Shown: positions 1 to 52,903, numbered from the stretch's first letter. The stretch is 64,000 nt of DNA from Candidatus Levybacteria bacterium RIFCSPHIGHO2_01_FULL_40_16 (GCA_001783805.1 MFNS01000001.1:342921-406920); one strand, 5' to 3'. Notes: generated by a model not told the origin, from the sequence alone. Made by a program: numbers and translations.

Positions 1-649
1 TACAAAAATACTCGAATGCATGCTTTTAACTTCTTGACTAATTGGGCTTAATGTCTTTCCAAAAAACCTATTCTTTCCTTCCACATAAGGGGTTTCTTCA
101 ACAGTAAATCCCAATCTACCAAACAATCTAGCATGACTAATGGTATAAGTAATAAATGTAATGCAGTTTTGCTTAGGCAGCTTCTTTTCATTAATTTCTA
201 TATACTTGGCCACCTTTTTCATTCCCGAAACAAGAGTTTCAAAAGTAGTTCCTTTATCGGAGTGGTTAAATGGATACAGACGTATAAAGCGTTTTCCTTT
301 TTTTAAACTTAAGCCACCATCTTTCTTAGAAACAAAGTCGTTCTCTGCTTTAGCCTCTCTAAGTAGAAAGCAGCTAATAATTTTATCGGGATTATGCCTT
401 AATAGATCCTCGTATAATGTGTTCATATATTGAGCATGTGCTTCCTCGCTCAAAATGTGACTATTGTTTACTTGATCTTCTATCCAAAAAAGGCCATTCT
501 GTATCGCTCGGCTGATTCTTGATGAGCCCATACCCTCTCGTGTTGCTAAGTTATGATTTAATACTGCAAAACGCGCCATTAAAGAGGTTTTCGGGACCTC
601 TTTAATCTCTTTTTGCTGACCTATTCGTTCTGCATTCATTGCGGGGTAA
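1..649 (-). CDS. hypothetical protein; C-terminal region vaguely GNAT/FemAB-fold-like; 3' end lies beyond the window start
   Basis: Uninterrupted minus-strand frame from ATG at 649 to position 1 (MNAERIGQQKEIKEV...FITYTISHARLFGRLGFTVEE...). Absent from the ORF track because it runs off the edge. Lies directly downstream of the beta-lactamase-like gene. Confidence 0.4.
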
Positions 650-655
650 ATTATA

Positions 656-1492
656 TTAAATCTTGGAAAAATAGTCAAAGACTCTCTTGGAGATTTGAGC
701 AATTCTCTCTTCTGCTCCCGGAGGATAACTACTCTCTGACAAAACTACGATAATATAGTCACCGGTCGGAGCATAGACAATTCCGCCGTCATGCGATAAA
801 TAGTCTATCTCTCCTGTCTTATGCGCAACAACTGTTCCTTCCGGTAGATATCTTGGCAGTTTATCATTAAGGGTCTGGGCTTTTAATAAATCCAGCATTT
901 CTTTAGTATATTGGGGATTATTAAGTTCGCCTTTGTATAACTTTTCAAAAAAAGCCGCGATATCATCAGCTGTTGATGTCGGCGTATCGCCAACATGTGA
1001 ATTATTAAAACCGTCTTTCTTCAAAAACCCGGCGACATTTAATAGCTTTATTCTATTGGTCAAAAGAAGCGCCGCATAATTATGTGAAATGGCAATCATT
1101 TGCCTTAAAGCATCCCTTACCGTTAATGTAATCGTTCCTTCCGTTAGCTCCGCAAATTCCGGATCAATATTAAGACCCTTATTCAAAACGCTCACGTCTT
1201 CCGATAATATTTCGTCTTTTGAAAGAGTGCCATTTCGGATCTGATCAAAAGATTCTGCCATAACCCACAATTTATAAAGACTGCCGACATTGTAAACTTT
1301 ATCTCCATAAAGCGAATCCCTTTTTTCATTTTCTAAATCTTCAACAACCACGCTGTATTTCCCTTTTGCACCTGACAATGAATTTAATATGGTTTTATAC
1401 AGGTTGGTATTGGAATTTATTTGCTTAAAAGTATAAAAACCAATTGTGCTAATTACAATAACGAATAACAGTAGCCATGTTCTTTTCTTCAC
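656..1492 (-). CDS. class A beta-lactamase-like / PBP-like serine hydrolase, N-terminal membrane anchor
   Basis: SxxK (SLYK), SDN-like (SHN) and KTG (KTGEI) motifs in the correct order; N-terminal hydrophobic segment. Confidence 0.7.
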   Translation of the reverse strand: MKKRTWLLLFVIVISTIGFYTFKQINSNTNLYKTILNSLSGAKGKYSVVVEDLENEKRDSLYGDKVYNVGSLYKLWVMAESFDQIRNGTLSKDEILSEDVSVLNKGLNIDPEFAELTEGTITLTVRDALRQMIAISHNYAALLLTNRIKLLNVAGFLKKDGFNNSHVGDTPTSTADDIAAFFEKLYKGELNNPQYTKEMLDLLKAQTLNDKLPRYLPEGTVVAHKTGEIDYLSHDGGIVYAPTGDYIIVVLSESSYPPGAEERIAQISKRVFDYFSKI

Positions 1493-1577
1493 GAAAAGAT
1501 TATAGCAAAATCCAGAATCTTTGTAATTAATGTTGATTTAGGCTGAAAATTCCTTCACCCTGTAGTACAATAATGTC

Positions 1578-1970
1578 GTGGCATTTAACAAGCTCACCCC
1601 AAAAGAAGCAGAAGTAATTGTAGGCAAGGGTACGGAACCGCCTTTCTCGGGAGAATATGACAAGTTTTACGAAAACGGCACTTTTATTTGCCGCAGGTGC
1701 AATGTTCCCTTATTTTCAGCAAAAAGTAAATTTGCTGCCGGATGCGGATGGCCGTCCTTTGACGAAAATTTTCCCAATGCCGTAAAACGGTTGCCGGACC
1801 CGGATGGACAAAGAACGGAGATTCAATGCGCCAATTGCCAAGCGCATTTGGGACATGTGTTTGAGGGAGAACATTTAACCGATAAAAACACCAGGCATTG
1901 CGTCAATTCTTTATCAATCCGTTTTGTTCCCGAAGGAAGGGAGCTGCCGAAAGTTTTACATGAAAAATAA
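1578..1970 (+). CDS. msrB: peptide methionine-(R)-S-oxide reductase MsrB
   Basis: CGWPSF, RTEIQCANCQAHLGHVF and RHCVNS motifs. Confidence 0.9.
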   Translation: MAFNKLTPKEAEVIVGKGTEPPFSGEYDKFYENGTFICRRCNVPLFSAKSKFAAGCGWPSFDENFPNAVKRLPDPDGQRTEIQCANCQAHLGHVFEGEHLTDKNTRHCVNSLSIRFVPEGRELPKVLHEK

Positions 1971-2529
1971 ATTGGAAACAGCAACACTTGCAGGCGGATG
2001 TTTTTGGTGTACGGAGGCAATCTTCAGAAGATTGAAAGGCGTAATATCTGTTTTGCCCGGATATGCGGGAGGAAATCCGCCAGCTGGCGGAAAAAATCCT
2101 TCTTATGCACAAGTTTGCTCCGGGAGTACGAGACATGCGGAATCTATTCAAATTGAGTTTGATCCTTCACTTCTTTCTTTTGAAAAAATCCTGGATATCT
2201 TCTGGCATACCCACAATCCCACGACTCTTAATCAACAAGGTAACGACATCGGCACACAATATCGATCGGCAATTTTTTACCACAATCAAAAGCAAAAAGA
2301 AATTGCCGAAAAATCAAAAACGGAATTTGAAGAAGAAAAAGTCTACCTGGATCCCGTTGTGACGGAAATTACTCCTTTCACAAATTTCTATATTGCTGAG
2401 AATTATCACAAAAACTATTTTGAGAGGAACAAAAACAAATCTTATTGTAATTTCGTAATTAACCCTAAAATACAAAAACTTCTCAAAAATTATGGAAATA
2501 TCATCAAGGAAGAATACAGACAATTTTAA
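1960..2529 (+). CDS. msrA: peptide methionine-(S)-S-oxide reductase MsrA
   Basis: GCFWC active-site motif. Start moved to the internal M (MKNKLETATLAGGCFWC), overlapping the msrB stop. Carries an in-frame NPPAGGK insertion. Confidence 0.9.
   Translation: MKNKLETATLAGGCFWCTEAIFRRLKGVISVLPGYAGGNPPAGGKNPSYAQVCSGSTRHAESIQIEFDPSLLSFEKILDIFWHTHNPTTLNQQGNDIGTQYRSAIFYHNQKQKEIAEKSKTEFEEEKVYLDPVVTEITPFTNFYIAENYHKNYFERNKNKSYCNFVINPKIQKLLKNYGNIIKEEYRQF
2074..2091. repeat. GC-rich 18-nt palindromic element, family 2 (AATCCGCCAGCTGGCGGA), in frame in msrA
   Basis: Encodes NPPAGG inserted between the conserved GYAGG and NPSY of MsrA. Confidence 0.8.
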
Positions 2530-2571
2530 ATCTCGCCTTTGCAGCAGGTTTTTTTGCCCTATTATTTTTAA

Positions 2572-2994
2572 TTAAGATGCTGTGATGGGGCCGACAAAAT
2601 CTTCCGGGGAAACTTCCTGATCGTGATTCTCATCCAGATCCAAATAAATCAAAACTTCACTTAATGATTTTTTATTCTCCGTATAAATTGAAAGCATTTG
2701 TTCTCCCGCAATTTCGACATACGTACCCATGGATGCTTCAGGATTTGAAGATATGTCAACCTCCTCCCCCTCGTTATCTTCCGGAGCAGCATATCTTGTT
2801 GCTCCCAGTTTCCCATTTGGGTCCGTTATTATTATTGAACCCTTATCTTTATTCAAGCTACAAATAACGGCTATCCTTGATCCTTTTCCCAAAAATTTTA
2901 CAGGCATCCAATTGCCAGAAGCAACACTATGTGAACCTATACATTTCTCTCCCCTTCTTTCACTGGTAGAGAAATAATCTACCTCCACGCTCAT
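2572..2994 (-). CDS. hypothetical protein
   Basis: 140-aa ORF with coding-like composition; no recognisable motif. Confidence 0.45.
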   Translation of the reverse strand: MSVEVDYFSTSERRGEKCIGSHSVASGNWMPVKFLGKGSRIAVICSLNKDKGSIIITDPNGKLGATRYAAPEDNEGEEVDISSNPEASMGTYVEIAGEQMLSIYTENKKSLSEVLIYLDLDENHDQEVSPEDFVGPITAS

Positions 2995-3034
2995 ATAAAT
3001 TATGAAAAGATTATATCAAAATGAAAATGATTTG

Positions 3035-3066
3035 GAAATTCGGGAGGGCTTTGCAGCCGGTTTTTT
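3035..3066 (+). repeat. intergenic G-tract motif copy 1 (GGGAGGGCTTTGCAGCCGGTTTTTT), degenerate
   Basis: Matches the 3.0-8.2 kb motif family; lies between divergent genes. Confidence 0.6.
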
Positions 3067-3112
3067 GATTTATTCAAAATATCATGTTAAAATATGCAGA
3101 TAGCATTTTATT

Positions 3113-3427
3113 ATGAATGAAAAAGAAGGATCTGAATTTGTAGTCGATGTACCTCTGGAGGCAAAAATATTCGCAGACGGACGGACATCCGTAGATTCGC
3201 TAATCTATACAACCAGTCCTGAAGCTTTGGAGAAATATAACAAAGAATGTGAAGAAAAAGGCGGCAGTCTAGTATCTCAAAAAGAACTGAAATCAGAGGA
3301 AGAATTCAGACAGGTATTAGAAAGAGCTTCAAAAAGCTATGGTTTTGCAAGATGGAATTCTTCATGGAATCCGGAAGGACCAAAGAAAAATTGGGTAGTA
3401 GCTCCCAAAAACCCCTCAAACAATTAG
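3113..3427 (+). CDS. hypothetical protein (cassette-like unit 1)
   Basis: 104-aa ORF bounded by motif copies 1 and 2. Confidence 0.45.
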   Translation: MNEKEGSEFVVDVPLEAKIFADGRTSVDSLIYTTSPEALEKYNKECEEKGGSLVSQKELKSEEEFRQVLERASKSYGFARWNSSWNPEGPKKNWVVAPKNPSNN

Positions 3428-3437
3428 TTCCGCATTT

Positions 3438-3466
3438 GAATTTTTTTTGGGGGGGGTTGCAGCCGG
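3438..3466 (+). repeat. intergenic G-tract motif copy 2 (GAATTTTTTTTGGGGGGGGTTGCAGCCGG)
   Basis: Direct reading of the sequence; sits between convergent genes. Confidence 0.85.
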
Positions 3467-3471
3467 CGTGG

Positions 3472-4020
3472 CTATTTTAATTTTTTAATTATTTCCAAAA
3501 GATAGGGGAAAGTCGTAAATCCGGTATCCGTATTTAAATGTCCGCCATCTTTTATAATTTTAGGCGCAACTCCAAGTTGATCCGCAACCATCCGTAACTC
3601 TTTCTGCGGAACATATGGATCATTATCTCCAAAGATTACAAATGAATTCTCAACATGTTTTTTTACTCTAGAGAAATCAATATGTTTTTCACTCAAAAAA
3701 TAACTATTCATTTCAGCCCCATAATCTTCTGCAAATCCTGAAACTGAGATTAATCCTATAATTTTCCTGTCAATCCCCCCTAATAGATCAAGAGCTGTCG
3801 TTACCCCCAAAGAATGACCAACTATAATAAGCTCTTGAGGATCTATGCCTTTTACTTTAACTTTTATAATTTTAAGCCATTCTTTTCTATCCGGATGGTC
3901 GGAATTTGGAAGATTCGGCATCAAAACATTGAATCCGCTCTTTATTAATTCATCATGCAGCCACTTTTGCCAATGAATACCGGCGTGTCCGCCAATTCCA
4001 TGAATAATTAACACCGTCAT
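3472..4020 (-). CDS. alpha/beta hydrolase, YdeN/RBBP9-like serine hydrolase
   Basis: GHSLG nucleophile elbow; fold-typical size of ~180 aa. Confidence 0.7.
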   Translation of the reverse strand: MTVLIIHGIGGHAGIHWQKWLHDELIKSGFNVLMPNLPNSDHPDRKEWLKIIKVKVKGIDPQELIIVGHSLGVTTALDLLGGIDRKIIGLISVSGFAEDYGAEMNSYFLSEKHIDFSRVKKHVENSFVIFGDNDPYVPQKELRMVADQLGVAPKIIKDGGHLNTDTGFTTFPYLLEIIKKLK

Positions 4021-4083
4021 AAACCAATTATATCAAAAGTGGGTTTGGGGAACTTTAGTGTTTAATGTATAATTCTAGGCCAT

Positions 4084-4749
4084 ATGCATGAGTCAATGGA
4101 ACATCGTCCTTTCTCCGAAATGGTAAGCATGGAGAGAAATCGGGATTCGCGAGACTACGCTCTGATAAATGGCTTTTCACATGCAAAAGATTTCCTTGAT
4201 TCTTTGGAAAAACAATTAATAAGGGGAGACAGAATTTTGGATATGGGATGCGGAAAAGGAAAGGCAATATCTCAAATCGGCCGAGAATTATCCTTGCAAG
4301 GTATAAATTGTCTGGCTCTAGATCGCGAGCTTCCGGAAAGACAATATAAATTTTTGGAGTATATCGACGGAACTTTTAGTGAAACGGGTCTTGAGGATAA
4401 TTCAGTAGATTTAATTGTTTCTGTATGTGGCTTACTTTACTATGCAGAAGACGAACAAGATCTTCATGAACACGTAAAAGAAACAGAAAGAATATTAGCT
4501 TCAAATGGAGAGTTGTCGGCTGTCGTAGACCCGGTTATTTATGAGCACGATCGTATGAAAATATCTCTTGCGCAATTAGCTACGCAGGAAATACGTCTTC
4601 AATCCCCCACCATTAATAATAAATCCTTCAAAATTAATGTTTGCAATTTATTAAAAGACGAAGGTTTAAGAATTGATAGACGGATATTACCAAAAGGCGG
4701 AATGATGATTGACGACGAAATTACCTTAATTATTAAAAAGGGTAAATAA
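4084..4749 (+). CDS. class I SAM-dependent methyltransferase
   Basis: Motif I ILDMGCGKGKA and an acidic residue after beta-2; the start may be an internal Met. Confidence 0.7.
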   Translation: MHESMEHRPFSEMVSMERNRDSRDYALINGFSHAKDFLDSLEKQLIRGDRILDMGCGKGKAISQIGRELSLQGINCLALDRELPERQYKFLEYIDGTFSETGLEDNSVDLIVSVCGLLYYAEDEQDLHEHVKETERILASNGELSAVVDPVIYEHDRMKISLAQLATQEIRLQSPTINNKSFKINVCNLLKDEGLRIDRRILPKGGMMIDDEITLIIKKGK

Positions 4750-4788
4750 TTTTGGTTTTTTTGGGGAGGGAGTTGCAACCGAGTTTTA
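4750..4788 (+). repeat. intergenic G-tract motif copy 3 (TTTTTTTGGGGAGGGAGTTGCAACCGAGTTTT)
   Basis: Direct reading; sits between convergent genes. Confidence 0.75.
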
Positions 4789-5550
4789 ATTTGTCCTAGC
4801 TTCTCCAACATCATTTCCATATCCGGGAAGCAAAGACTTGGCATCTTTCATATCAATAAATATTTCAACCTGCATTAGTAACATTTTTCTCTCAAAAGTA
4901 TTTTTAAAACCCCCAAAATATAATTTATGCATATTTTCTTCTCCAAATTCCTCAATAAGCTCCTTATATAGATGACTAATTTTATCTTGCTTCTCCGTGG
5001 TAGGACATTCATAGTCTCTTTCCCGATTGATCTCCTCCTGATAATATACTGTTCCCATTTCAAAAAATAATTCCGGAAGTGACCAATCCTGAAACTGATG
5101 CACTGTCTCATGTACGATGTTTGCAATAAGATTTATATAAGTCAGTTCCGTTATTGCCTGTTCTTTACTGCCAAAATATTCAATAAATTTTTCCTTTTCT
5201 GTCTGAGAAATACCCGCCCATACTTCAAGCGTATCTAGGAGAACTGTTATACCGCCCTTTTTACAAACATATGCCGTTGGATTTCTTGACTCCTCTCTCC
5301 CAAGCCAATCCTTATGAAACTTTACGTAAGATTCTTTTGTTAAGAAAAGCAGTCTATTCTCAATCCCATCTGAAATCTGGTCTTTTGTGTTTGGCATAAA
5401 TTCACCATACTTAGTTACGAGGAAATCGGACACTTCCCTAACTAATGTTCCCAAGCTTTCCTGAAAACTGTCTCTAACAACTGAATAATCACGTCTAAGA
5501 TCCCTCATTGTTTCTTTGCTTGCGATGAAATCATTTCGTTCTACTCCCAT
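4786..5550 (-). CDS. hypothetical protein with HExxH motif (putative zinc metallopeptidase-like)
   Basis: VHETVHQF contains HExxH; no other recognisable domain. Confidence 0.5.
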   Translation of the reverse strand: MGVERNDFIASKETMRDLRRDYSVVRDSFQESLGTLVREVSDFLVTKYGEFMPNTKDQISDGIENRLLFLTKESYVKFHKDWLGREESRNPTAYVCKKGGITVLLDTLEVWAGISQTEKEKFIEYFGSKEQAITELTYINLIANIVHETVHQFQDWSLPELFFEMGTVYYQEEINRERDYECPTTEKQDKISHLYKELIEEFGEENMHKLYFGGFKNTFERKMLLMQVEIFIDMKDAKSLLPGYGNDVGEARTN

Positions 5551-5605
5551 AAGTCGAAGACAATATTATACTTATTTTTCTTTTTTTGCAAGAATTAGAA
5601 TGTGA

Positions 5606-5640
5606 GAATGGGGGGGGTTGCAGCCGATTTTCTTATTTGC
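5606..5640 (+). repeat. intergenic G-tract motif copy 4 (GAATGGGGGGGGTTGCAGCCGATTTTCTTATTTGC)
   Basis: Direct reading; sits between divergent genes. Confidence 0.85.
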
Positions 5641-5672
5641 TTTTTCCGACATCCATACGTATAATCCTCTTT

Positions 5673-6401
5673 ATGGCCAATATAGAAGCACCAAAAAATC
5701 CATTAATTACTGAAACGGGGCCAAAACCATTGACGCTTGAACAAGTTGAATCAAATTCAATTCGATTAAAAATGGGCAGGATTAAAAATTTCAAATTAGG
5801 ATCGGAATCAGTATCATTCAGCAATATAGGAGGTTTTAGCATCACAGATGAGTATGATGCTGATCAATTCGGATTTAATTCTGATCCTTATTGGTCACAA
5901 GACCTTCTCCGTTTTGATCCACTTACTCACATTCTGAAGACAAATAAATATGGGAACTTAGAAGTTTATGAAACTCAAGGAGGAAAACTTATCCCAAATG
6001 GACAAAGACCAAGGATTATCATTGGAGCAAGGGACCTTAGAGAGATTGATAGGGTATACTTTATGGAAGGCGAAGTTCGTCCGTCAGGATTTGTTTTCCC
6101 AAAGCATTTTCCACGTTATCCCCTAGGCGAAGGGCGTGAAATTACTCCTGAAGAGCTCGAGCAGATGCTATTAAAAGCACAACGAGATGATAAACCCCAA
6201 TCCGATTACAATCTTCATGGTGGATTTGCAAGGGTTGACTCAAGCCTAGTTGGAAAAAGCGTTCTCTTAATTCCTTTTGACGTTACCTATAGGGATTCTA
6301 AAAATGTTATGCAAACGGATGCCGTGATAGTTGATGTAGAGGAACTGAAATTAATTCCTCGGATCTTTTATACTCTTACCCCCGAAACAAAAACGCATTA
6401 A
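5673..6401 (+). CDS. hypothetical protein
   Basis: Start moved to the internal Met (MANIEAPK), so the G-tract motif lies upstream rather than inside the CDS. Confidence 0.5.
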   Translation: MANIEAPKNPLITETGPKPLTLEQVESNSIRLKMGRIKNFKLGSESVSFSNIGGFSITDEYDADQFGFNSDPYWSQDLLRFDPLTHILKTNKYGNLEVYETQGGKLIPNGQRPRIIIGARDLREIDRVYFMEGEVRPSGFVFPKHFPRYPLGEGREITPEELEQMLLKAQRDDKPQSDYNLHGGFARVDSSLVGKSVLLIPFDVTYRDSKNVMQTDAVIVDVEELKLIPRIFYTLTPETKTH

Positions 6402-6410
6402 ACAACTTAT

Positions 6411-6441
6411 GGAATTTTAGAGGGGGGGGTTGCAGCCTGTT
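6411..6441 (+). repeat. intergenic G-tract motif copy 5 (GGAATTTTAGAGGGGGGGGTTGCAGCCTGTT)
   Basis: Direct reading. Confidence 0.85.
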
Positions 6442-6518
6442 ATTAATTCCTGTCAAGGCTATTCTTCCGATTGACAAGATTGGCTTAATACGCTAGAATA
6501 ATATTTAATAATCATCTG

Positions 6519-6543
6519 AAAATCCCCGAAAGGGGATTTTTGG
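6519..6543. terminator. bidirectional intrinsic terminator hairpin (AAATCCCC-GAAA-GGGGATTT plus T run)
   Basis: Perfect 8-bp stem with GAAA loop, flanked by A/T runs on both strands, between convergent genes. Confidence 0.55.
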
Positions 6544-6546
6544 AAT

Positions 6547-7074
6547 CTAGATTCTCTCCACAAATTCTCTTAAAGTATTGAAATTAATATATTTATTCGC
6601 AGCTTTTAAAAGTTCGTAAGAGACATGCCCTTTCGATGAAATTACAACTACTTTTTTGTCTTTGTTTTGCAGATATCTGACCAGGGCATGAAAATCGCTG
6701 TCTCCGCTCATTAGAACAGCTGTCGAATAATACTTAAGATCCTTAATGGCATCTATGGTCAGCTCCACATCCAAATTCCCTTTCTTTAAGATAGTGCCGT
6801 CAGATTGTCTAATTAATTTAACTTCTTTGGTTCTGATTTTGTAACCCCACTGTCTTAATTTCCTAAAGAATCCTTGTTGTTTTTCGTCATCTTTTAAATA
6901 TCCAAAATAGAAATAGACGTTATCCAGCTGATAATTGACCTTGAAGTAATCCATCAATTTTTTAAAATCTATCTGCCATTTTAGAGTTCTTTGGGAATAA
7001 ATTACATTAGCTGCGTCAATAAATACCGCAGCCTTAGTTGATTGGCGATAAATGATTTTTCTTATGATTGGCAT
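6547..7074 (-). CDS. NYN-domain (LabA/YacP-like) putative ribonuclease
   Basis: VFIDAANV ... LMSGDSDF acidic motifs typical of the NYN/PIN-like fold. Start moved to the internal Met. Confidence 0.65.
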   Translation of the reverse strand: MPIIRKIIYRQSTKAAVFIDAANVIYSQRTLKWQIDFKKLMDYFKVNYQLDNVYFYFGYLKDDEKQQGFFRKLRQWGYKIRTKEVKLIRQSDGTILKKGNLDVELTIDAIKDLKYYSTAVLMSGDSDFHALVRYLQNKDKKVVVISSKGHVSYELLKAANKYINFNTLREFVERI

Positions 7075-7093
7075 CTTTAAATTAATTATAACA

Positions 7094-7124
7094 GGAATTT
7101 TTTGGGGGGGGTTGCAACCGGTTT
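7094..7124 (+). repeat. intergenic G-tract motif copy 6 (GGAATTTTTTGGGGGGGGTTGCAACCGGTTT)
   Basis: Direct reading. Confidence 0.85.
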
Positions 7125-7140
7125 CCAAGAATTATCAGAT

Positions 7141-8088
7141 TTATGTCGCTATGTTCTTAGGTTTTCCATTTAGGAAACTTTCCATATTGCTAATAAAAAT
7201 TTCTTGCTTGGCTATTCTTGCCTCATCAGAGATATAACCAATTGATGGATAGAATATGCAATTTTTATATTTAGATAATCTTTTCGCTTCTTCCGGGCTT
7301 AACTCATCCGGATGATCACGAATAATAGTTATATCTTCTTTTTTAAGCCTATCTTCTAATGCCGTTAAATCTGTTATCTCATTGGTAACTGTGCTTACAG
7401 CCAAACTTCCCTTCTTAATGCTATTGATTCTTTTTCTATTTAGAAAATGTTTTGTTTGCGGAGTTTCTGCCAAATTAAGAGAAATAATATCCGCTTGAGA
7501 AATTAAACTATCGGCATCTTGATATTTAATACCTTTTTTCTCCAAATCTTCTTTTCTATGCCTCGACCAATATCTGACATCCGCGCCAAAAGTCTTGGCA
7601 ATTTCTGCTATTCTACTCCCAATTCTTCCCAGACCAATTACTCCAAATATTTTATCTTTTATCTCTGTTGCTTTAAACCCTGCTTCGGAATAATTGCCCT
7701 TACCCGCCTGCTCTTTTGCCCTGGATAAATCTCTTATCTTTTCCAAGATTACTCCAAAAACGAATTCCGCAACTGATTCCGTAGAATAACCCGGGACATT
7801 GGTCACGATTATACCCTTTTTCTTTGCATAATCTGTGTCAATTTTTCCGTAAGCGGTAGCTAAAACGCTAATATATTTTAAATTTGGAGCTGCATCTATT
7901 TCTTCTCTGCCAACAGGTATTTGAAATCCCGTTAAGATACAGTCGACGTCGACCAATTCTTTTCTTATTTGAGGGCTGTCCTTTGGGAGACATAATTTTC
8001 TTTCAACCAATTTATCTAGCTTTCCCCAATATTTCCGGTCCAAGCTATCTTCGCTAATGCTTATTGTTAACGCTTTTTTGAATTTCAT
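7141..8088 (-). CDS. D-isomer-specific 2-hydroxyacid dehydrogenase family protein (glycerate/phosphoglycerate dehydrogenase-like)
   Basis: NAD-binding GxGxxG (GVIGLGRIGSRIAEIAKTFGADV); catalytic His/Glu/Arg region. Confidence 0.85.
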   Translation of the reverse strand: MKFKKALTISISEDSLDRKYWGKLDKLVERKLCLPKDSPQIRKELVDVDCILTGFQIPVGREEIDAAPNLKYISVLATAYGKIDTDYAKKKGIIVTNVPGYSTESVAEFVFGVILEKIRDLSRAKEQAGKGNYSEAGFKATEIKDKIFGVIGLGRIGSRIAEIAKTFGADVRYWSRHRKEDLEKKGIKYQDADSLISQADIISLNLAETPQTKHFLNRKRINSIKKGSLAVSTVTNEITDLTALEDRLKKEDITIIRDHPDELSPEEAKRLSKYKNCIFYPSIGYISDEARIAKQEIFISNMESFLNGKPKNIAT

Positions 8089-8118
8089 ACCCTAACACAG
8101 AAAGTATAGCAAAAATTT

Positions 8119-8172
8119 AGAATTTTTGGGGCGATTTTTTTTGAGGGGGTTGCAGCCGGTTTTTTTTATTTG
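8119..8172 (+). repeat. intergenic G-tract motif copy 7 (GAATTTTTGGGGCGATTTTTTTTGAGGGGGTTGCAGCCGGTTTTTTTTATTTGC)
   Basis: Direct reading; last copy of the array. Confidence 0.8.
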
Positions 8173-8264
8173 CTCGATTATCTTTCAAGTCGAAATATAC
8201 CGATAAGGATTACTCCACTAATTTCTTAATACCAACTAGGTTGCTATCTATATCACAAATGGAA

Positions 8265-8528
8265 CTATTTTACAAATGATCTATAAACCTTTATAAAGAT
8301 ATAGCCGACTACCCAAGCTGTTATCGTAGATGAGATTAAACCTACGATAAATGCCGACATAGTTAAATTCCCAACGTCTAGCCTACTAAACTCAACGCCA
8401 TGAAACCATGATTGAGCGATAGCAAAAAATTCATTAGGAAATAAGCCCACCAACAGCCGACACAATACATAAATAATAGCCGTTGTAACTGCTAAGGCAT
8501 TTTGTATTGCGTATGATTGATTTTTCAT
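8265..8528 (-). CDS. small membrane protein, hypothetical
   Basis: 87 aa with two predicted TM segments. Confidence 0.4.
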   Translation of the reverse strand: MKNQSYAIQNALAVTTAIIYVLCRLLVGLFPNEFFAIAQSWFHGVEFSRLDVGNLTMSAFIVGLISSTITAWVVGYIFIKVYRSFVK

Positions 8529-8544
8529 AAATTTTCACCTCCTT

Positions 8545-8580
8545 TTGACATACACCCCCCAGGGGTATATACTATAATAT
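8545..8580 (+). promoter_or_regulatory. csoR promoter (-35 TTGACA) with a CsoR-type operator-like pseudopalindrome ACACCCCCCAGGGGTAT
   Basis: TTGACA at 8545-8550, GC-tract inverted repeat at 8551-8568, TATAAT at 8573-8578, start of csoR at 8583. Confidence 0.5.
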
Positions 8581-8582
8581 AT

Positions 8583-8852
8583 ATGAATAAAAATAAGGAT
8601 GTCAAGGGGCAAGCTCAAAAGCGTATCAATATTATCAAAGGACAGCTTGACGGTTTGCTTAAAATGATCGAAGAAGATAAATATTGTATTGATTTGCTCG
8701 ATCAAAGTTTAGCTATACAAAATTCAATCAAAAGTCTTGATGCGCTTATATTCGAAAAACATTTAGGAACACATGTCGCAGATCAATTCCGAAATGAAAG
8801 AGAAAAAGCAATCGCAGAACTGTTAAGATTATTTAAGAGGATTCATCAATAG
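8583..8852 (+). CDS. csoR: CsoR/RcnR-family metal-sensing transcriptional repressor
   Basis: DUF156 family length and conserved Cys/His (YCIDLL...HL) pattern; immediately upstream of a copper ATPase. Confidence 0.8.
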   Translation: MNKNKDVKGQAQKRINIIKGQLDGLLKMIEEDKYCIDLLDQSLAIQNSIKSLDALIFEKHLGTHVADQFRNEREKAIAELLRLFKRIHQ

Positions 8853-8866
8853 ATAGATAAATCTTT

Positions 8867-10948
8867 ATGAATGAAAAAACGTATACCTGCCCAATGGATC
8901 CGGATGTAATACGAGATACTCCTGGTAATTGTCCAAAGTGCGGAATGAAGCTTGTGCCTATAAACGCAGAGCATGAGGGGCACGAAAATCATGCCTCGAT
9001 GGAGAAAGATTTTAGAAAACGTTTCTTTATTACCTTACCTTTTGTTTTACTTATCATGCTTCTTTCGCCAAATATCCAAAAATGGTTGCATTTTAATGTA
9101 AATTTTCCAGGTATCGGATTGTTGCTTTTTGTAATAGGTGCTTTTATTTTCCTCTTTGGCGGAATACCTTTCTTTAAAGCAGCAAAAGGAGAATTATCGC
9201 AAAAAAATCCCGGAATGATGACTCTGGTAGCGTTTGCCATAGCTGTAGGATTTACTTTTTCAGTTGCCGCAACTTTCTTTTTTCCGGAAGAATCTCTTTA
9301 TTGGGAAATATCCACCCTTATCTCTGTTTTTTTATTAGGCCATTGGCTTGAAATGAGAGCGGTCAGGGGAGCAACAGGCGCTTTGGCAGAATTGACCAAA
9401 CTTATTCCCCCATCCGCTCATCTTATTAAGAATGGTGACATCACGGATGTTAAAACTAATCAATTAGTGATAGGCAATAGAGTTTTAGTTAAGCCGGGAG
9501 AAAAAATTCCGATTGACGGTACGATAATAGATGGAGAAAGTTCGGTTAATGAATCAATGGTTACCGGAGAATCAAGACCTATTAATAAGAAAAAAAACGA
9601 TAAGGTAATTGGAGGCACTATTAATCAAGACGGGTCGTTGACAATTGAAGTTGCCAAAACAGGAGCGGATACAGCCATCTCTCAAATCATGAAATTAATA
9701 CGGGAGGCCCAAGCTTCAAAACCCAATGTGCAACACTTAGCTGATAGAGCAGCCGGTGTCTTATTCTATATAGCTATTGTTGCCGGAACTGTTTCATTTA
9801 TTACCTGGGTATTTATTTTACCTCACGGAGTTGTTTTCGCAGCGACTGTGGCTGTGGCGGCAATTGTTGTCGCTTGTCCTCATGCGCTTGGACTAGCCAT
9901 TCCTACAGTTACCACGATTACTTCTACTCTTGGCGCTAAAAACGGAATTTTGATCAAGGATATGAAGGGACTGGAAATAGCCAGAAAATTGAATTATGTG
10001 GTGTTTGATAAAACAGGAACTCTGACAAAAGGAGAGTTCGGAGTAACTGACATTATTTTAAGCCAAAAATCGAGTATTAAAGATCAAGATGAATTTCTGA
10101 AATTAGCGGCCGCCGTAGAGGTTCAATCACAACACTCCATCGCTCAAGGAATCGTTAATCATGCTAGGAATAGAAAGCTAGAAATCCCGGATGTAAAAGA
10201 ATTTAAATCTTTTCCGGGTAAAGGAGCTACCGGAAAAATTGGTAATAAAAAAATTGTGGTTGGCAATAAAGCTTTAATGGAAGAATTAAAAATAAGGATA
10301 AATGAGAATGGTTGGAGAAGGAAGAGTAAGGCGAGTACGCCAGTTTTTGTTGCCATAGATAGCAAACTAGCCGGAGTAATACTTCTTGCTGATATAATCA
10401 GGGAAGAATCAAAAGAGGCGATTAAAAGACTTCACGACATGGGAATAAAAACAGCTATGCTTACGGGAGATACCCTTGATGTAGCCAGCGAGGTTGGAAA
10501 ACAACTTAATCTGGATACTGTTTTTGCCCAAGTTTTACCTGAGGATAAGGTTAATAAGGTTAAGCAATTGCAAAACGAAGGGAATATTGTAGCTATGGTG
10601 GGAGATGGTGTTAATGATGCTCCGTCTCTTACTCAATCCCACGTTGGAATTGCCATAGGCGCGGGGACAGATGTCGCAGTTGAATCGGCAGACATCGTGC
10701 TCATGAAAAATGATCCAATGGATGTAGTCAAAGCAATATCTTTAAGCCGAAAAACTAATACCAAAATGGTTCAGAATCTAATCTGGGCAACCGGCTATAA
10801 CGTCTTTGCTATCCCAACAGCGGCAGGAGTGCTCTATCCGTCATTTGACATCTTGCTTCGGCCCGAATGGGCTGCTCTTTTGATGAGCGCATCATCAATT
10901 ATTGTGGTTTTTAACGCTCTTCTGTTAAGACGGGCAAAATTGAATTAA
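8867..10948 (+). CDS. copB: copper-translocating P1B-type ATPase (CPH motif, CopB-like) with N-terminal YHS/TRASH-like metal-binding domain
   Basis: DKTGTLT, CPH (ACPHALG) and GDGVNDAP motifs; 8 TM helices. Confidence 0.9.
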   Translation: MNEKTYTCPMDPDVIRDTPGNCPKCGMKLVPINAEHEGHENHASMEKDFRKRFFITLPFVLLIMLLSPNIQKWLHFNVNFPGIGLLLFVIGAFIFLFGGIPFFKAAKGELSQKNPGMMTLVAFAIAVGFTFSVAATFFFPEESLYWEISTLISVFLLGHWLEMRAVRGATGALAELTKLIPPSAHLIKNGDITDVKTNQLVIGNRVLVKPGEKIPIDGTIIDGESSVNESMVTGESRPINKKKNDKVIGGTINQDGSLTIEVAKTGADTAISQIMKLIREAQASKPNVQHLADRAAGVLFYIAIVAGTVSFITWVFILPHGVVFAATVAVAAIVVACPHALGLAIPTVTTITSTLGAKNGILIKDMKGLEIARKLNYVVFDKTGTLTKGEFGVTDIILSQKSSIKDQDEFLKLAAAVEVQSQHSIAQGIVNHARNRKLEIPDVKEFKSFPGKGATGKIGNKKIVVGNKALMEELKIRINENGWRRKSKASTPVFVAIDSKLAGVILLADIIREESKEAIKRLHDMGIKTAMLTGDTLDVASEVGKQLNLDTVFAQVLPEDKVNKVKQLQNEGNIVAMVGDGVNDAPSLTQSHVGIAIGAGTDVAVESADIVLMKNDPMDVVKAISLSRKTNTKMVQNLIWATGYNVFAIPTAAGVLYPSFDILLRPEWAALLMSASSIIVVFNALLLRRAKLN

Positions 10949-35848: not shown

Positions 35849-36790
35849 TTAAATTTTCTCCAACACTTTTATTATTTCTTTAATCCCCAGCTTGCTTGGA
35901 CGCATTTTTGGATTTTTGACTGATCCATTGAGAAGCATTTTTTTTCCAACATGCAGAAACCAGGTGGCATCCGGATCCAGTTTTTTCAGCTTTTCATAAA
36001 CAGGGGTCAAGTCTATATTTATTTTGCCGATGACAGGCACGGCTTTGATGCGGATGTACCCCTTTCTCGGATCTTTTCTTAAAACGATTACATAGCCCAT
36101 CTTTTGAGATAATTTGATAACCGTATCGTTTAAAGTTTCAAAGCCAATTCCTTTTCCAAATTGAGTGGTAAACTTTTGGCCATTTTCTCTGATTTCTTTT
36201 TCCGCCCAGATTCTATTTTCAAATTCGTGCAAAACCGCGTCTAATCCCTTGCTCACAAATTCAACATAATAATCATCCTGATTGGGAAATTGAAATTTAA
36301 GTCCATCCAAAATGCTTGTCAGATTAAACTCATGATAGTCTGCAACTGCATCTTTCCAAAATACTTCCTTAAAATGATCAATATCTACAATTACTCCAAT
36401 CATTCTGGAGATCGCTTCTGTTTTGCTCTTTATTTTGTCATTCTGAATTCTGAATTCTGAATTCTGAATTCTGACGTAATCCCAGGTTAGACTCGCACCG
36501 CAGACTTTGTCCGATACGGTCTGGTGATGATCCAAAGGTCCCAAACCCGTATCAACATGAATTACCTCGTCATCCTCAATGACTTCAATTGGAGACGCTT
36601 CATTTCCATTTTTCCATTTTCCGCTGTCAATCCGTTCCCCTGCCGGTACAAATCTTACAGTTGCAGTTTCCCATCCCGGTAAAAACTTTTTAATTAGCCA
36701 AACTGAAGTAATTGCATCCATATCCGGAGACGTATGCGTCACAACAATTTTCATGCTTTCAAGTATACAGCAGTATCCTCTACTTGACAA
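35849..36790 (-). CDS. DHH-family phosphoesterase
   Basis: Motif I/II VVTHTSPDMDAITS and motif III LDHHQT. Contains an in-frame heptamer repeat tract. Confidence 0.6.
   Translation of the reverse strand: MSSRGYCCILESMKIVVTHTSPDMDAITSVWLIKKFLPGWETATVRFVPAGERIDSGKWKNGNEASPIEVIEDDEVIHVDTGLGPLDHHQTVSDKVCGASLTWDYVRIQNSEFRIQNDKIKSKTEAISRMIGVIVDIDHFKEVFWKDAVADYHEFNLTSILDGLKFQFPNQDDYYVEFVSKGLDAVLHEFENRIWAEKEIRENGQKFTTQFGKGIGFETLNDTVIKLSQKMGYVIVLRKDPRKGYIRIKAVPVIGKINIDLTPVYEKLKKLDPDATWFLHVGKKMLLNGSVKNPKMRPSKLGIKEIIKVLEKI
36441..36474. repeat. (TGAATTC)n heptanucleotide tandem repeat, 4.5 copies, inside the DHH esterase CDS
   Basis: TTCTGAATTCTGAATTCTGAATTCTGAATTCTGA; encodes RIQNSEFRIQN. Confidence 0.8.
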
Positions 36791-52609: not shown

Positions 52610-52903
52610 ATGCGAAGAAAGTTAATTTATTATATTTACATCTTAACAAATAAATACAATACAACTTCCTATATTGGTGTTACCAACAGTATTTTCAAAA
52701 GACTTTTTGAACATAAATTTGGCTTGATGGAAGGTTTTACAAAAAAATATAAAACCAAAAAACTTGTGTATCTCGAGGAGTACAGCGACATTAAAGAGGC
52801 TATTGCCCGAGAAAAACAATTAAAAAATTGGCATAGAGACTGGAAGATAAATTTGATTAAAAAAGCAAATCCTAAATTTGAAGATATGTCTGTTTTCGAT
52901 TAA
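52610..52903 (+). CDS. GIY-YIG nuclease-family protein (stand-alone, ~97 aa)
   Basis: YIYILTN ... YIGVTN ... R..EH GIY-YIG catalytic motifs. Confidence 0.75.
   Translation: MRRKLIYYIYILTNKYNTTSYIGVTNSIFKRLFEHKFGLMEGFTKKYKTKKLVYLEEYSDIKEAIAREKQLKNWHRDWKINLIKKANPKFEDMSVFD

Follow-up and report, generated by a model that had tools for sequence, protein, structure and literature searches.

Chromosomal integrons and the clusters of attC sites lacking integron-integrases (CALINs) are among the closest described counterparts of the locus considered here, an array of small accessory-gene units in Candidatus Levybacteria bacterium RIFCSPHIGHO2_01_FULL_40_16, a member of the Candidate Phyla Radiation (CPR). 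The array occupies 3.0-8.2 kb of a stretch of 64,000 nucleotides (GCA_001783805.1 MFNS01000001.1:342921-406920), which is termed the window and in which positions are counted from the first letter. Its units are bounded by an asymmetric motif of about 30 nt with a G8-TTGCA core. Integron cassettes are mostly promoterless and co-oriented and are expressed from a common promoter, while their attC sites are imperfect palindromes of 55-140 nt (R''-L''/L'-R') that fold as single strands. Like sedentary chromosomal integrons and CALINs, the array combines mostly single-gene, unrelated units with a co-oriented repeat and with strain-variable content at a fixed place. A toxin-antitoxin unit and units without an open reading frame (ORF) recall integron cassettes, and the lack of an adjacent integrase recalls CALINs. 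Unlike both, the array is without IntI, bears genes on both strands with their own promoter-like sites, and includes one two-gene unit. In its behaviour the locus matches a chromosomal integron or CALIN, yet each defining feature that was tested is lacking, be it IntI, an attC-type structure or cassettes without promoters in a common orientation.

The array is modular and motif-bounded, and it varies both between and within species, with exchange points located in or beside the G8-TTGCA core. The genomes of CPR bacteria are tiny and hold very few recognised mobile elements, and the way in which these bacteria gain accessory genes is poorly understood. Single-gene units that close relatives exchange at one short, defined sequence provide a testable handle on gene flow in this uncultivated phylum. 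No description of the motif was found in the literature searched, either by topic or by motif sequence.

Three other systems invite comparison. The pdif (Xer) modules of Acinetobacter plasmids and the dif-integrating elements are likewise small modules that include toxin-antitoxin pairs, have short sites and depend on an enzyme encoded elsewhere, as is putatively the case for the array. A pdif site measures about 28 bp, has an 11-bp inverted arm on either side of a 6-bp spacer and alternates in orientation, with the recombinase encoded elsewhere; the array motif, in contrast, has no dyad symmetry, occurs only as direct copies and does not lie at the chromosomal terminus. Islands of the tRNA-targeting or tycheposon type in Prochlorococcus also hold cargo modules between co-oriented short direct repeats, many without an integrase, and the repeats of such tandem att islands are left by successive site-specific integrations. 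The array differs from them in that no tRNA or transfer-messenger RNA (tmRNA) gene is present in the window, the repeat is not a gene end and the units are far smaller (0.4-1.3 kb, one gene). The dRS3 mosaics and minimal mobile elements of Neisseria, a naturally transformable genus, resemble the array in having short repeats at exchange points and genes swapped between conserved flanks. However, dRS3 units enclose non-coding repeats and have inverted-repeat ends, and minimal mobile elements are defined by their flanking genes, whereas the array repeats enclose genes, lie at gene boundaries and lack inverted-repeat ends.

Sequence and Confinement of the Boundary Motif

Between 3.0 and 8.2 kb, the window contains seven plus-strand copies of the motif, which reads T(5-8) G(5-8) TTGCA[A/G]CC(GG) followed by a T-run. 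In a direct reading of 2700-8500 anchored on TTGCA[AG]CC, their TTGCA elements start at 3051, 3457, 4773, 5618, 6430, 7112 and 8150, and the same seven copies form the top family in a repeat search of the window. A loose pattern that tolerates two mismatches gives 8 matches against 0.42 expected, a number reached by none of 100 shuffles (0/100); loose matches eight and nine (16963 and 33667) are intragenic and lack the motif flanks. In a profile hidden Markov model (HMM) search, with a model trained on 16 main-motif copies and run on the window plus 9.3 kb upstream (about 73 kb), the seven copies score 24-33 bits and every other site at most 7.8 bits. The initial annotation had proposed seven co-oriented copies on the plus strand and no further copy in the 64 kb, and both statements stand; the option that the motif is a generic intergenic element falls away, as it is confined to the array in about 73 kb and its real metagenome matches are arrays.

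The consensus, T(6-8) G8 TTGCA followed by RCCGG T(5-8), is asymmetric, and some copies have a longer AT-rich right half. Degenerate forms are found in copies 1 and 3 (GGGAGGGCTTTGCAGCC, GGGGAGGGAGTTGCAACC), and copy 7 carries G5. All copies, including the G8 length, are without difference among eight independent assemblies of the window strain, which excludes an assembly artefact. The core is invariant across species in which the DNA identity of flanking genes is no higher than about 76%, which implies that it is kept up by selection or by ongoing exchange.

The seven motif junctions comprise two divergent, three convergent and two tandem gene pairs. Across three species (the window and two relatives described below), 16/16 main-motif copies have one orientation regardless of gene strand, yet only 8/16 have a matching-strand gene downstream, which points to a role of the motif at the DNA level rather than in transcription. 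The earlier suggestion of a terminator or regulator is accordingly not borne out, given this 8/16 figure, the lack of a hairpin and the absence of promoter or terminator enrichment (see below). Three scans of viral contigs returned only chance or unrelated single matches and no related site, and thus no phage link.

Variation among Related Arrays

Three further arrays in close relatives carry the same motif and lie beside the copper locus with different genes. They were found by a metagenome scan and by a scan of a genome collection with the loose pattern GGGGGGGTTGCARCCG, in which the listed matches were mostly high-GC noise and which gave one relevant locus, L098. The latter is the same as L153, from Levybacteria RIFCSPLOWO2_12_FULL_37_14, whose NCBI and JGI assemblies are 99.98% identical. 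L292 is one sequence present in five assemblies (also L151, L148, L293 and L294). The arrangements, with unit boundaries given by semicolons, are as follows; c2 denotes a second boundary motif, GGTTTGGGGAATTTTAYC, and DH denotes D-2-hydroxyacid dehydrogenase.

Window: 104-aa protein; motif; serine hydrolase and methyltransferase; motif; 254-aa protein; motif; 242-aa protein; motif; NYN; motif; DH
L153: enolase, PPDK, methyltransferase; motif; DH; motif; 207-aa ORF and PhD-PIN; degenerate terminal site; DUF5676, csoR, copA
L292: PPDK, 239-aa protein; motif; 194-aa protein; c2; NYN; motif; 160 nt; motif; 220-aa protein; motif; 250 nt; motif; PhD-PIN; motif; 198-aa protein; motif with terminal site; copper genes

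Compared with the window, L153 does not have the three units between copies 3 and 6, and the resulting junction falls within the motif. L153 also has an additional 1.4 kb at the position of copy 7, with flanks TTGCAGCCG... and ...TTTGTAGCCG that are as expected if integration had taken place at the core. In L292, every motif copy is on one strand, and the 194-aa ORF shares 84% of its nucleotides with the 207-aa ORF of L153. The shared units (DH, methyltransferase, NYN and the PhD-PIN toxin-antitoxin pair) have different neighbours among the arrays. Within the strain, the variant L162 matches window 1-3460 at 99.9% identity and departs from it directly past GGGGGGGGTTGC of copy 2, after which its novel 96 nt have no match among the sequences compared; one of its T-runs differs in length by one base. 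Because assemblies made with k-141 cannot be mis-joined by a repeat of 16-30 nt, and because each arrangement recurs independently, these are real structural variants.

Integron-like behaviour is therefore present in the sense that relatives have acquired, lost and rearranged units at the repeat (window versus L153, L292 and L162), the outcome of the alignment to relatives that had been set beforehand as a check. The proposal of cassette-like units is upheld in this respect, while the statement of one ORF per repeat was overstated and a dedicated recombinase site is something that we only infer.

Two motif-bounded units of L292 (8434-8594 and 9370-9622) have no ORF, and the first of them contains a hairpin (ACATCCTTAAA...TTTAAGGATGT).

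Breakpoints and Divergence of Shared Units

By a hand count of homology-block ends, about 17 of 19 lie no more than 36 nt from a motif copy, many of them inside the core. The NYN block (window 6453-7119, corresponding to L292 7775-8441) is 96.7% identical in DNA, and the protein is 98.9% identical in amino acids in L151/L292, where a different unit comes next. On the right of NYN, identity runs through G8TTGCA, such that the left-hand T6G8TTGCA is kept in both the window and L292 and then continues as ACCGGTTTCC (towards DH) or as GCCAGCTCC (towards a different unit). On the left of DH, the sequence is shared from G8TTGCAACCGG onwards, and in both the window and L153 this gene is flanked by ACCGGTTTCCAAG and, at its opposite end, by GGGGCGATTTTTTTT-G-run. 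The ends of NYN and DH display the pattern expected if each unit end bears half a site, although this pattern is not universal. The methyltransferase block (window 4044-4786, L153 6071-6808) has its left end at a degenerate c2 site, at 4040-4057.

Third-codon differences between the window and L153 amount to 22% for DH and 25% for the methyltransferase, versus 33-47% for DUF5676, CsoR, CopA and redoxin. The shared units therefore postdate the split of the species, in line with exchange between lineages, in a small sample of two units against four core genes.

Parts of the Array

The array and its flanks consist of the following elements; the scores of motif copies 1 to 7 are those of the main-motif HMM.

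2572..2994, minus strand: left flank, 140-aa protein of no family, divergent from copy 1; not recombinase-like; not in L153 or L292
3034..3072, plus strand: motif copy 1, degenerate, terminal 'd-type' GGGAGGGCTTTGCAGCCGGTTTTTTGATTTATTC; 25.2 bits; left array end; resembles the copper-side terminal sites of L153 and L292
3113..3427, plus strand: unit 1, 104-aa protein of no family
3438..3469, plus strand: motif copy 2, T8 G8 TTGCAGCCGG; 26.3 bits; breakpoint of the strain-level variant L162
3472..4020, minus strand: unit 2a, serine hydrolase (PF06821); not in the L153 or L292 arrays
4040..4057, plus strand: degenerate c2 copy (GGTTTGGGGAACTTTAG; GGTTTGGGGAACTTTA); 8.0 bits, weak; the only gap without the main motif
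4084..4749, plus strand: unit 2b, S-adenosylmethionine (SAM) methyltransferase; 83% amino acid identity in L153, there beside DH
4754..4792, plus strand: motif copy 3, degenerate G-run GGGGAGGGAG TTGCAACCGAG; 24.1 bits; right end of the methyltransferase block shared with L153
4786..5550, minus strand: unit 3, 254-aa orphan protein; not in L153 or L292
5602..5638, plus strand: motif copy 4, G8 TTGCAGCCGA TTTTCTTATTTGC; 27.7 bits
5673..6401, plus strand: unit 4, 242-aa protein of no family; promoter-like TTGCTT-17-TATAAT at 5637-5665
6409..6450, plus strand: motif copy 5, G8 TTGCAGCCTG; 26.4 bits; left end of the NYN block shared with L292
6547..7074, minus strand: unit 5, NYN-domain nuclease; hairpin terminator of its own at 6521-6545
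7093..7133, plus strand: motif copy 6, T6 G8 TTGCAACCGG; 32.9 bits, the top score; breakpoint against both L153 and L292
7141..8088, minus strand: unit 6, D-2-hydroxyacid dehydrogenase (DH), with the motif on either side in the window and in L153
8132..8177, plus strand: motif copy 7, main-motif left half and terminal-site right half (GAGGGGG TTGCAGCC GGTTTTTTTTATTTGCTCGATTAT); 25.7 bits; right array end
8265..8852: right flank, DUF5676 (minus strand) and csoR (plus strand), the start of the conserved copper locus, which adjoins the array in all three species

Three of the genes between copies 1 and 7 are on the plus strand and four on the minus strand, and promoter-like sites occur within units. 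The cargo consists mostly of orphan proteins, together with NYN, the methyltransferase, the hydrolase and DH, and with the PhD-PIN pair in relatives. A search of 5.8 billion proteins returned no homologue of the 254-aa orphan, and PHROGs, PADLOC and Pfam applied to the orphan cargo returned only NYN, a weak methyltransferase match and PhD-PIN.

The gene functions given in the initial annotation agree with these assignments (Ser_hydrolase, methyltransferase, NYN, 2-Hacid_dh and four no-family proteins). Three of its structural statements need correction: the motif is not in every intergenic gap, as the divergent gap at 4020-4084 has the degenerate c2 in place of a copy; the interval 3466-4750 holds two ORFs (hydrolase and methyltransferase) instead of one; and the array does not end exactly at csoR, since the DUF5676 gene intervenes.

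The 3' ends of the 104-aa and 242-aa ORFs (3406-3428 and 6388-6410, about 23 nt) are alike (CAAAAACnCnTnAAACAAnTTA) though the ORFs are unrelated, and they precede copies 2 and 5, respectively. Each has an upstream C-run able to pair with G8, and the corresponding folds are not significant. At 6469-6550, the 3' end of the NYN gene has a strong hairpin terminator (AAAATCCCCGAAAGGGGATTTTT), and a near-consensus plus-strand promoter (TTGACA-17-TAGAAT) leads directly into it. This arrangement is kept in the NYN unit of L292 (7794-7866) and could yield a very short transcript or an antisense RNA.

The c2 Motif and the Terminal Site

In more distant Levybacteria, with DH at 76-80% amino acid identity, c2 is a second co-oriented boundary motif at accessory genes. 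The loci L128, L130, L134, L166 and L296, whose DH homologues show 72-80% identity, are without the main motif, which is therefore confined to a narrow clade. L128 has five c2 copies, all within the accessory half of the locus (687-9969, minus strand); L166 has three around a ROK kinase and DH (185-2468, minus strand); and L296 has four to five around AbiEii, PhD-PIN, DH and NYN (4311-8919, minus strand). Overall, the accessory genes flanked by c2 comprise Fic, AbiEii, PhD-PIN, ROK, DH and NYN. In L153, c2 is found on the plus strand at 2369-2394 and 6065-6087 and marks the left end of the array, and in L292 it forms the left boundary of NYN (7755-7782, plus strand). Another copy lies ahead of the core gene ychF, about 850 nt upstream of window position 1 (L158 12321-12343). 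The main core is directly beside a c2 remnant at three orthologous boundaries, namely upstream of DH, downstream of DH and to the left of NYN. From these comparisons, the main motif is derived, restricted to a narrow clade and superimposed on an older set of boundaries.

Some c2 copies contain several T2-4G4 runs that could form a G-quadruplex (e.g., L292 6861-6890). A role of c2 as a same-strand promoter element was considered and set aside: 10/13 copies precede such a gene by hand count, but about 71% of genes there are on that strand, which renders the count uninformative.

The terminal site that adjoins the copper locus in L153 and L292 reads GCTTTRYAGCCGGTTTTYYTGATTTGCTCRATWAT, and the right half of copy 7 is orthologous to it. 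Copy 7 has G5 in the window and G8 in L153. An exchange between the main motif and a terminal site within the shared TTGCAGCC core would explain the composition of copy 7. By analogy, the terminal site may serve as the entry site.

Structural Tests and Rejected Site Classes

When motif regions were folded as RNA (71-76 nt) and as DNA (146 nt) on both strands, z values of -0.6 to +1.6 relative to shuffles indicated no significant structure. No inverted-repeat partner exists near any copy, and the consensus T6-8 G8 TTGCAGCC GG T5-8 is without dyad symmetry. Only copy 2 has a small private hairpin (3461-3473). Within 2500-8700, promoter-like sites (24 versus 21.2 expected) and terminator-like sites (5 versus 4.8 expected) are not enriched. 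In agreement with the view that the motif is not attC-like, fold z values are around zero on both strands.

These data dispose of several identities. An integron is rejected within the range covered, as no IntI, Phage_integrase or other recombinase family is recorded for any called gene between -9.3 and about +60 kb, and integron or CALIN attC sites are rejected for want of a palindromic fold or an inverted-repeat partner. The units also differ from integron or CALIN cassettes, being placed on both strands with their own promoter-like sites instead of promoterless and co-oriented. Xer/pdif sites are at odds with the lack of dyad symmetry and with 16/16 copies being direct, and a dif site or terminus element with the absence of a GC-skew switch at the array. 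A tRNA/tmRNA-att island is contradicted by the absence of any tRNA or tmRNA gene in 64 kb and of any Rfam match. Dispersed repeats of the repetitive extragenic palindrome (REP) or miniature inverted-repeat transposable element (MITE) type are not compatible with the missing hairpin, about 73 kb without an extra copy, and low-GC multi-copy metagenome matches that are arrays only. For an intrinsic terminator, the folds are not significant and copies also occupy divergent junctions. Finally, for a polarity signal like Chi or the FtsK-orienting polar sequences (KOPS), the G-rich strand coincides with the C-rich (lagging) strand, and the copies form a cluster instead of being scattered.

Candidate Mechanisms of Unit Exchange

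Site-specific recombination is the preferred explanation, although we consider it evenly poised between right and wrong: a strain-variable chromosomal accessory-gene array in which the unit boundaries, formed by the asymmetric, unstructured motif of about 30 nt, would recombine with the help of a trans-acting recombinase. The motif would function as a double-stranded recombination site, units would move as circles through conservative site-specific recombination between direct repeats, and the copper-side terminal site would be the point of entry. The recombinase acting in trans would be encoded elsewhere in the genome or would not be dedicated. A more far-reaching version, which we put forward tentatively, holds that the locus is an undescribed CPR gene-capture platform parallel to the integron, with a short linear, asymmetric double-stranded site (T-run, G8, TTGCA followed by GCCGG, T-run), terminal entry on the copper side, a non-IntI enzyme encoded elsewhere, and c2 as the ancestral version. 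If a dedicated enzyme exists, the array would represent a second independent invention of the cassette-array strategy with a simple double-stranded site, which bears on integron evolution, and it could offer a compact recombination tool.

In favour of site-specific recombination are the confinement of the motif to the array, the four different arrays that it bounds, the changed neighbours of shared units, the homology-block ends and the flanks of the L153 insert at the core, the lower third-codon divergence of shared units, the invariant core, the single orientation of all 16 copies, and a content typical of cassette arrays (orphan genes, a PhD-PIN pair and two ORF-less units in L292). Several observations weigh against it. 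Precomputed Pfam records for all called genes from -9.3 kb to about +60 kb of the window list no recombinase, transposase or integrase, in line with the initial annotation, which saw no recombinase in the window. Likewise, no recombinase domain is recorded in 20 kb of L292, and none was seen among the ORFs of 10 kb of L153. The motif lacks the dyad symmetry typical of sites for tyrosine or small serine recombinases. Boundaries do not always travel with their units: L153 and L292 differ in the ends of both the toxin-antitoxin unit and the 207/194-aa unit, and NYN is bounded on its left by the main motif in the window and by c2 in L292. At the ancestral DH-NYN junction, comparison of L296 with the window shows that the core substitutes for about 20 nt while length and neighbours are unchanged; no cassette event is thus needed for the core to appear or disappear in place. 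The window-type array is found on at least 24 contigs, and its arrangement is the same in most samples of the window strain (look-ups with DUF5676 and with the 104-aa protein gave the standard arrangement only); array turnover is therefore slow. In addition, the shared core of 13-16 nt fits homology-driven exchange equally well.

Homology-driven exchange, the main rival, which is possible but rather unlikely, would require no dedicated recombinase. The motif would be an island boundary element, and DNA taken up from relatives would be exchanged by homologous, microhomology or template-switch events anchored on the motifs and shared units, with gene conversion homogenizing the copies. CPR bacteria are generally thought to depend on DNA uptake, which favours such a process, as does the absence of any recorded recombinase nearby. 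Natural transformation is known to shuffle integron cassettes (PMC12614218). Breakpoints occupy a range of about 15 nt that extends from the G-run as far as CCGG, with no single base preferred, as this explanation would have it, and the core that arose in place at the DH-NYN junction and the several unit ends that do not travel with their unit are likewise in its favour. However, the identical stretch is only about 13-30 nt long, at or below what RecA-dependent exchange usually needs, and neither the presence of the same asymmetric, co-oriented motif on every new unit nor the strong conservation of the non-G part TTGCAGCCGG is explained. If no enzyme is involved, the array would exemplify short repeats that organise homology-driven gene turnover.

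A small mobile element with site specificity, of which the motif would be a footprint or target, appears improbable. According to this proposal, a G8-TTGCAGCCGG core was inserted beside the older c2, spread within the island and was followed by reshuffling between copies. The core lying beside c2 remnants at three orthologous boundaries, the restriction of L128, L166 and L296 to c2, and the replacement of about 20 nt at an otherwise conserved junction would all accord with insertion; nevertheless, terminal inverted repeats, a target-site duplication and a nearby transposase are all missing, about 73 kb contain no copy outside the array, and the real metagenome matches are all arrays.

A shared transcription signal, whether a terminator that needs no hairpin or depends on a factor, an insulator or a promoter element active in both directions, is very improbable. 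T-runs flank the core, parts of the right half overlap -35-like hexamers of two plus-strand genes (3065-3093 and 5637-5665), and minus-strand transcripts would contain a C8 tract. These features are outweighed by the lack of a stable fold on either strand and of enriched promoter-like or terminator-like sites, by the single orientation at divergent, convergent and tandem junctions, by the absence of the motif from the other 60 kb of genes, and by the break in homology at the core, which a transcription signal leaves unexplained.

Phase variation, in which the G8 runs would act as homopolymeric tracts switching the expression of neighbours, deserves almost no credence: G8 is prone to slippage, one T-run of L162 is off by one base and copy 7 varies between G5 and G8, but the assembled consensus of G8 length is invariant in eight assemblies, which lends no support to this early suggestion, the tract has no constant position relative to -10/-35 elements or start codons, and the conserved TTGCAGCCGG is left unexplained.

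Genomic Surroundings and Minor Observations

The sequence of the window is also present on a 526-kb ENA contig (ERZ27254767:k141_2437175) and on NCBI MFOJ01000018.1, and its DH matches, at 100% identity, a protein of Candidatus Levybacteria bacterium RIFCSPHIGHO2_12_FULL. From -9.3 kb to about +60 kb, the neighbourhood comprises housekeeping genes, the copper locus and a YafQ/PhD pair. ARAGORN found no tRNA or tmRNA gene in the 64 kb, and no Rfam family matched the window. From -9 to +62 kb, the GC skew follows a negative, almost monotonic course that does not switch where the array lies.

In the upstream PhD/YafQ pair (L158 13605-14145), the YafQ-like toxin is called as an 88-aa protein in a single assembly and with 70-71 aa in further assemblies of this strain (comparison with L159, L161 and L162), which suggests a frameshift or a start-site polymorphism. 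A tandem heptamer, TTCTGAA x5, is located in a coding region at 36441-36475 and also occurs at L155 3294-3321. At about 52610-52903 on the plus strand, a 97-aa GIY-YIG ORF lies between thymidylate synthase and dihydrofolate reductase, a classic position for a free-standing homing endonuclease.

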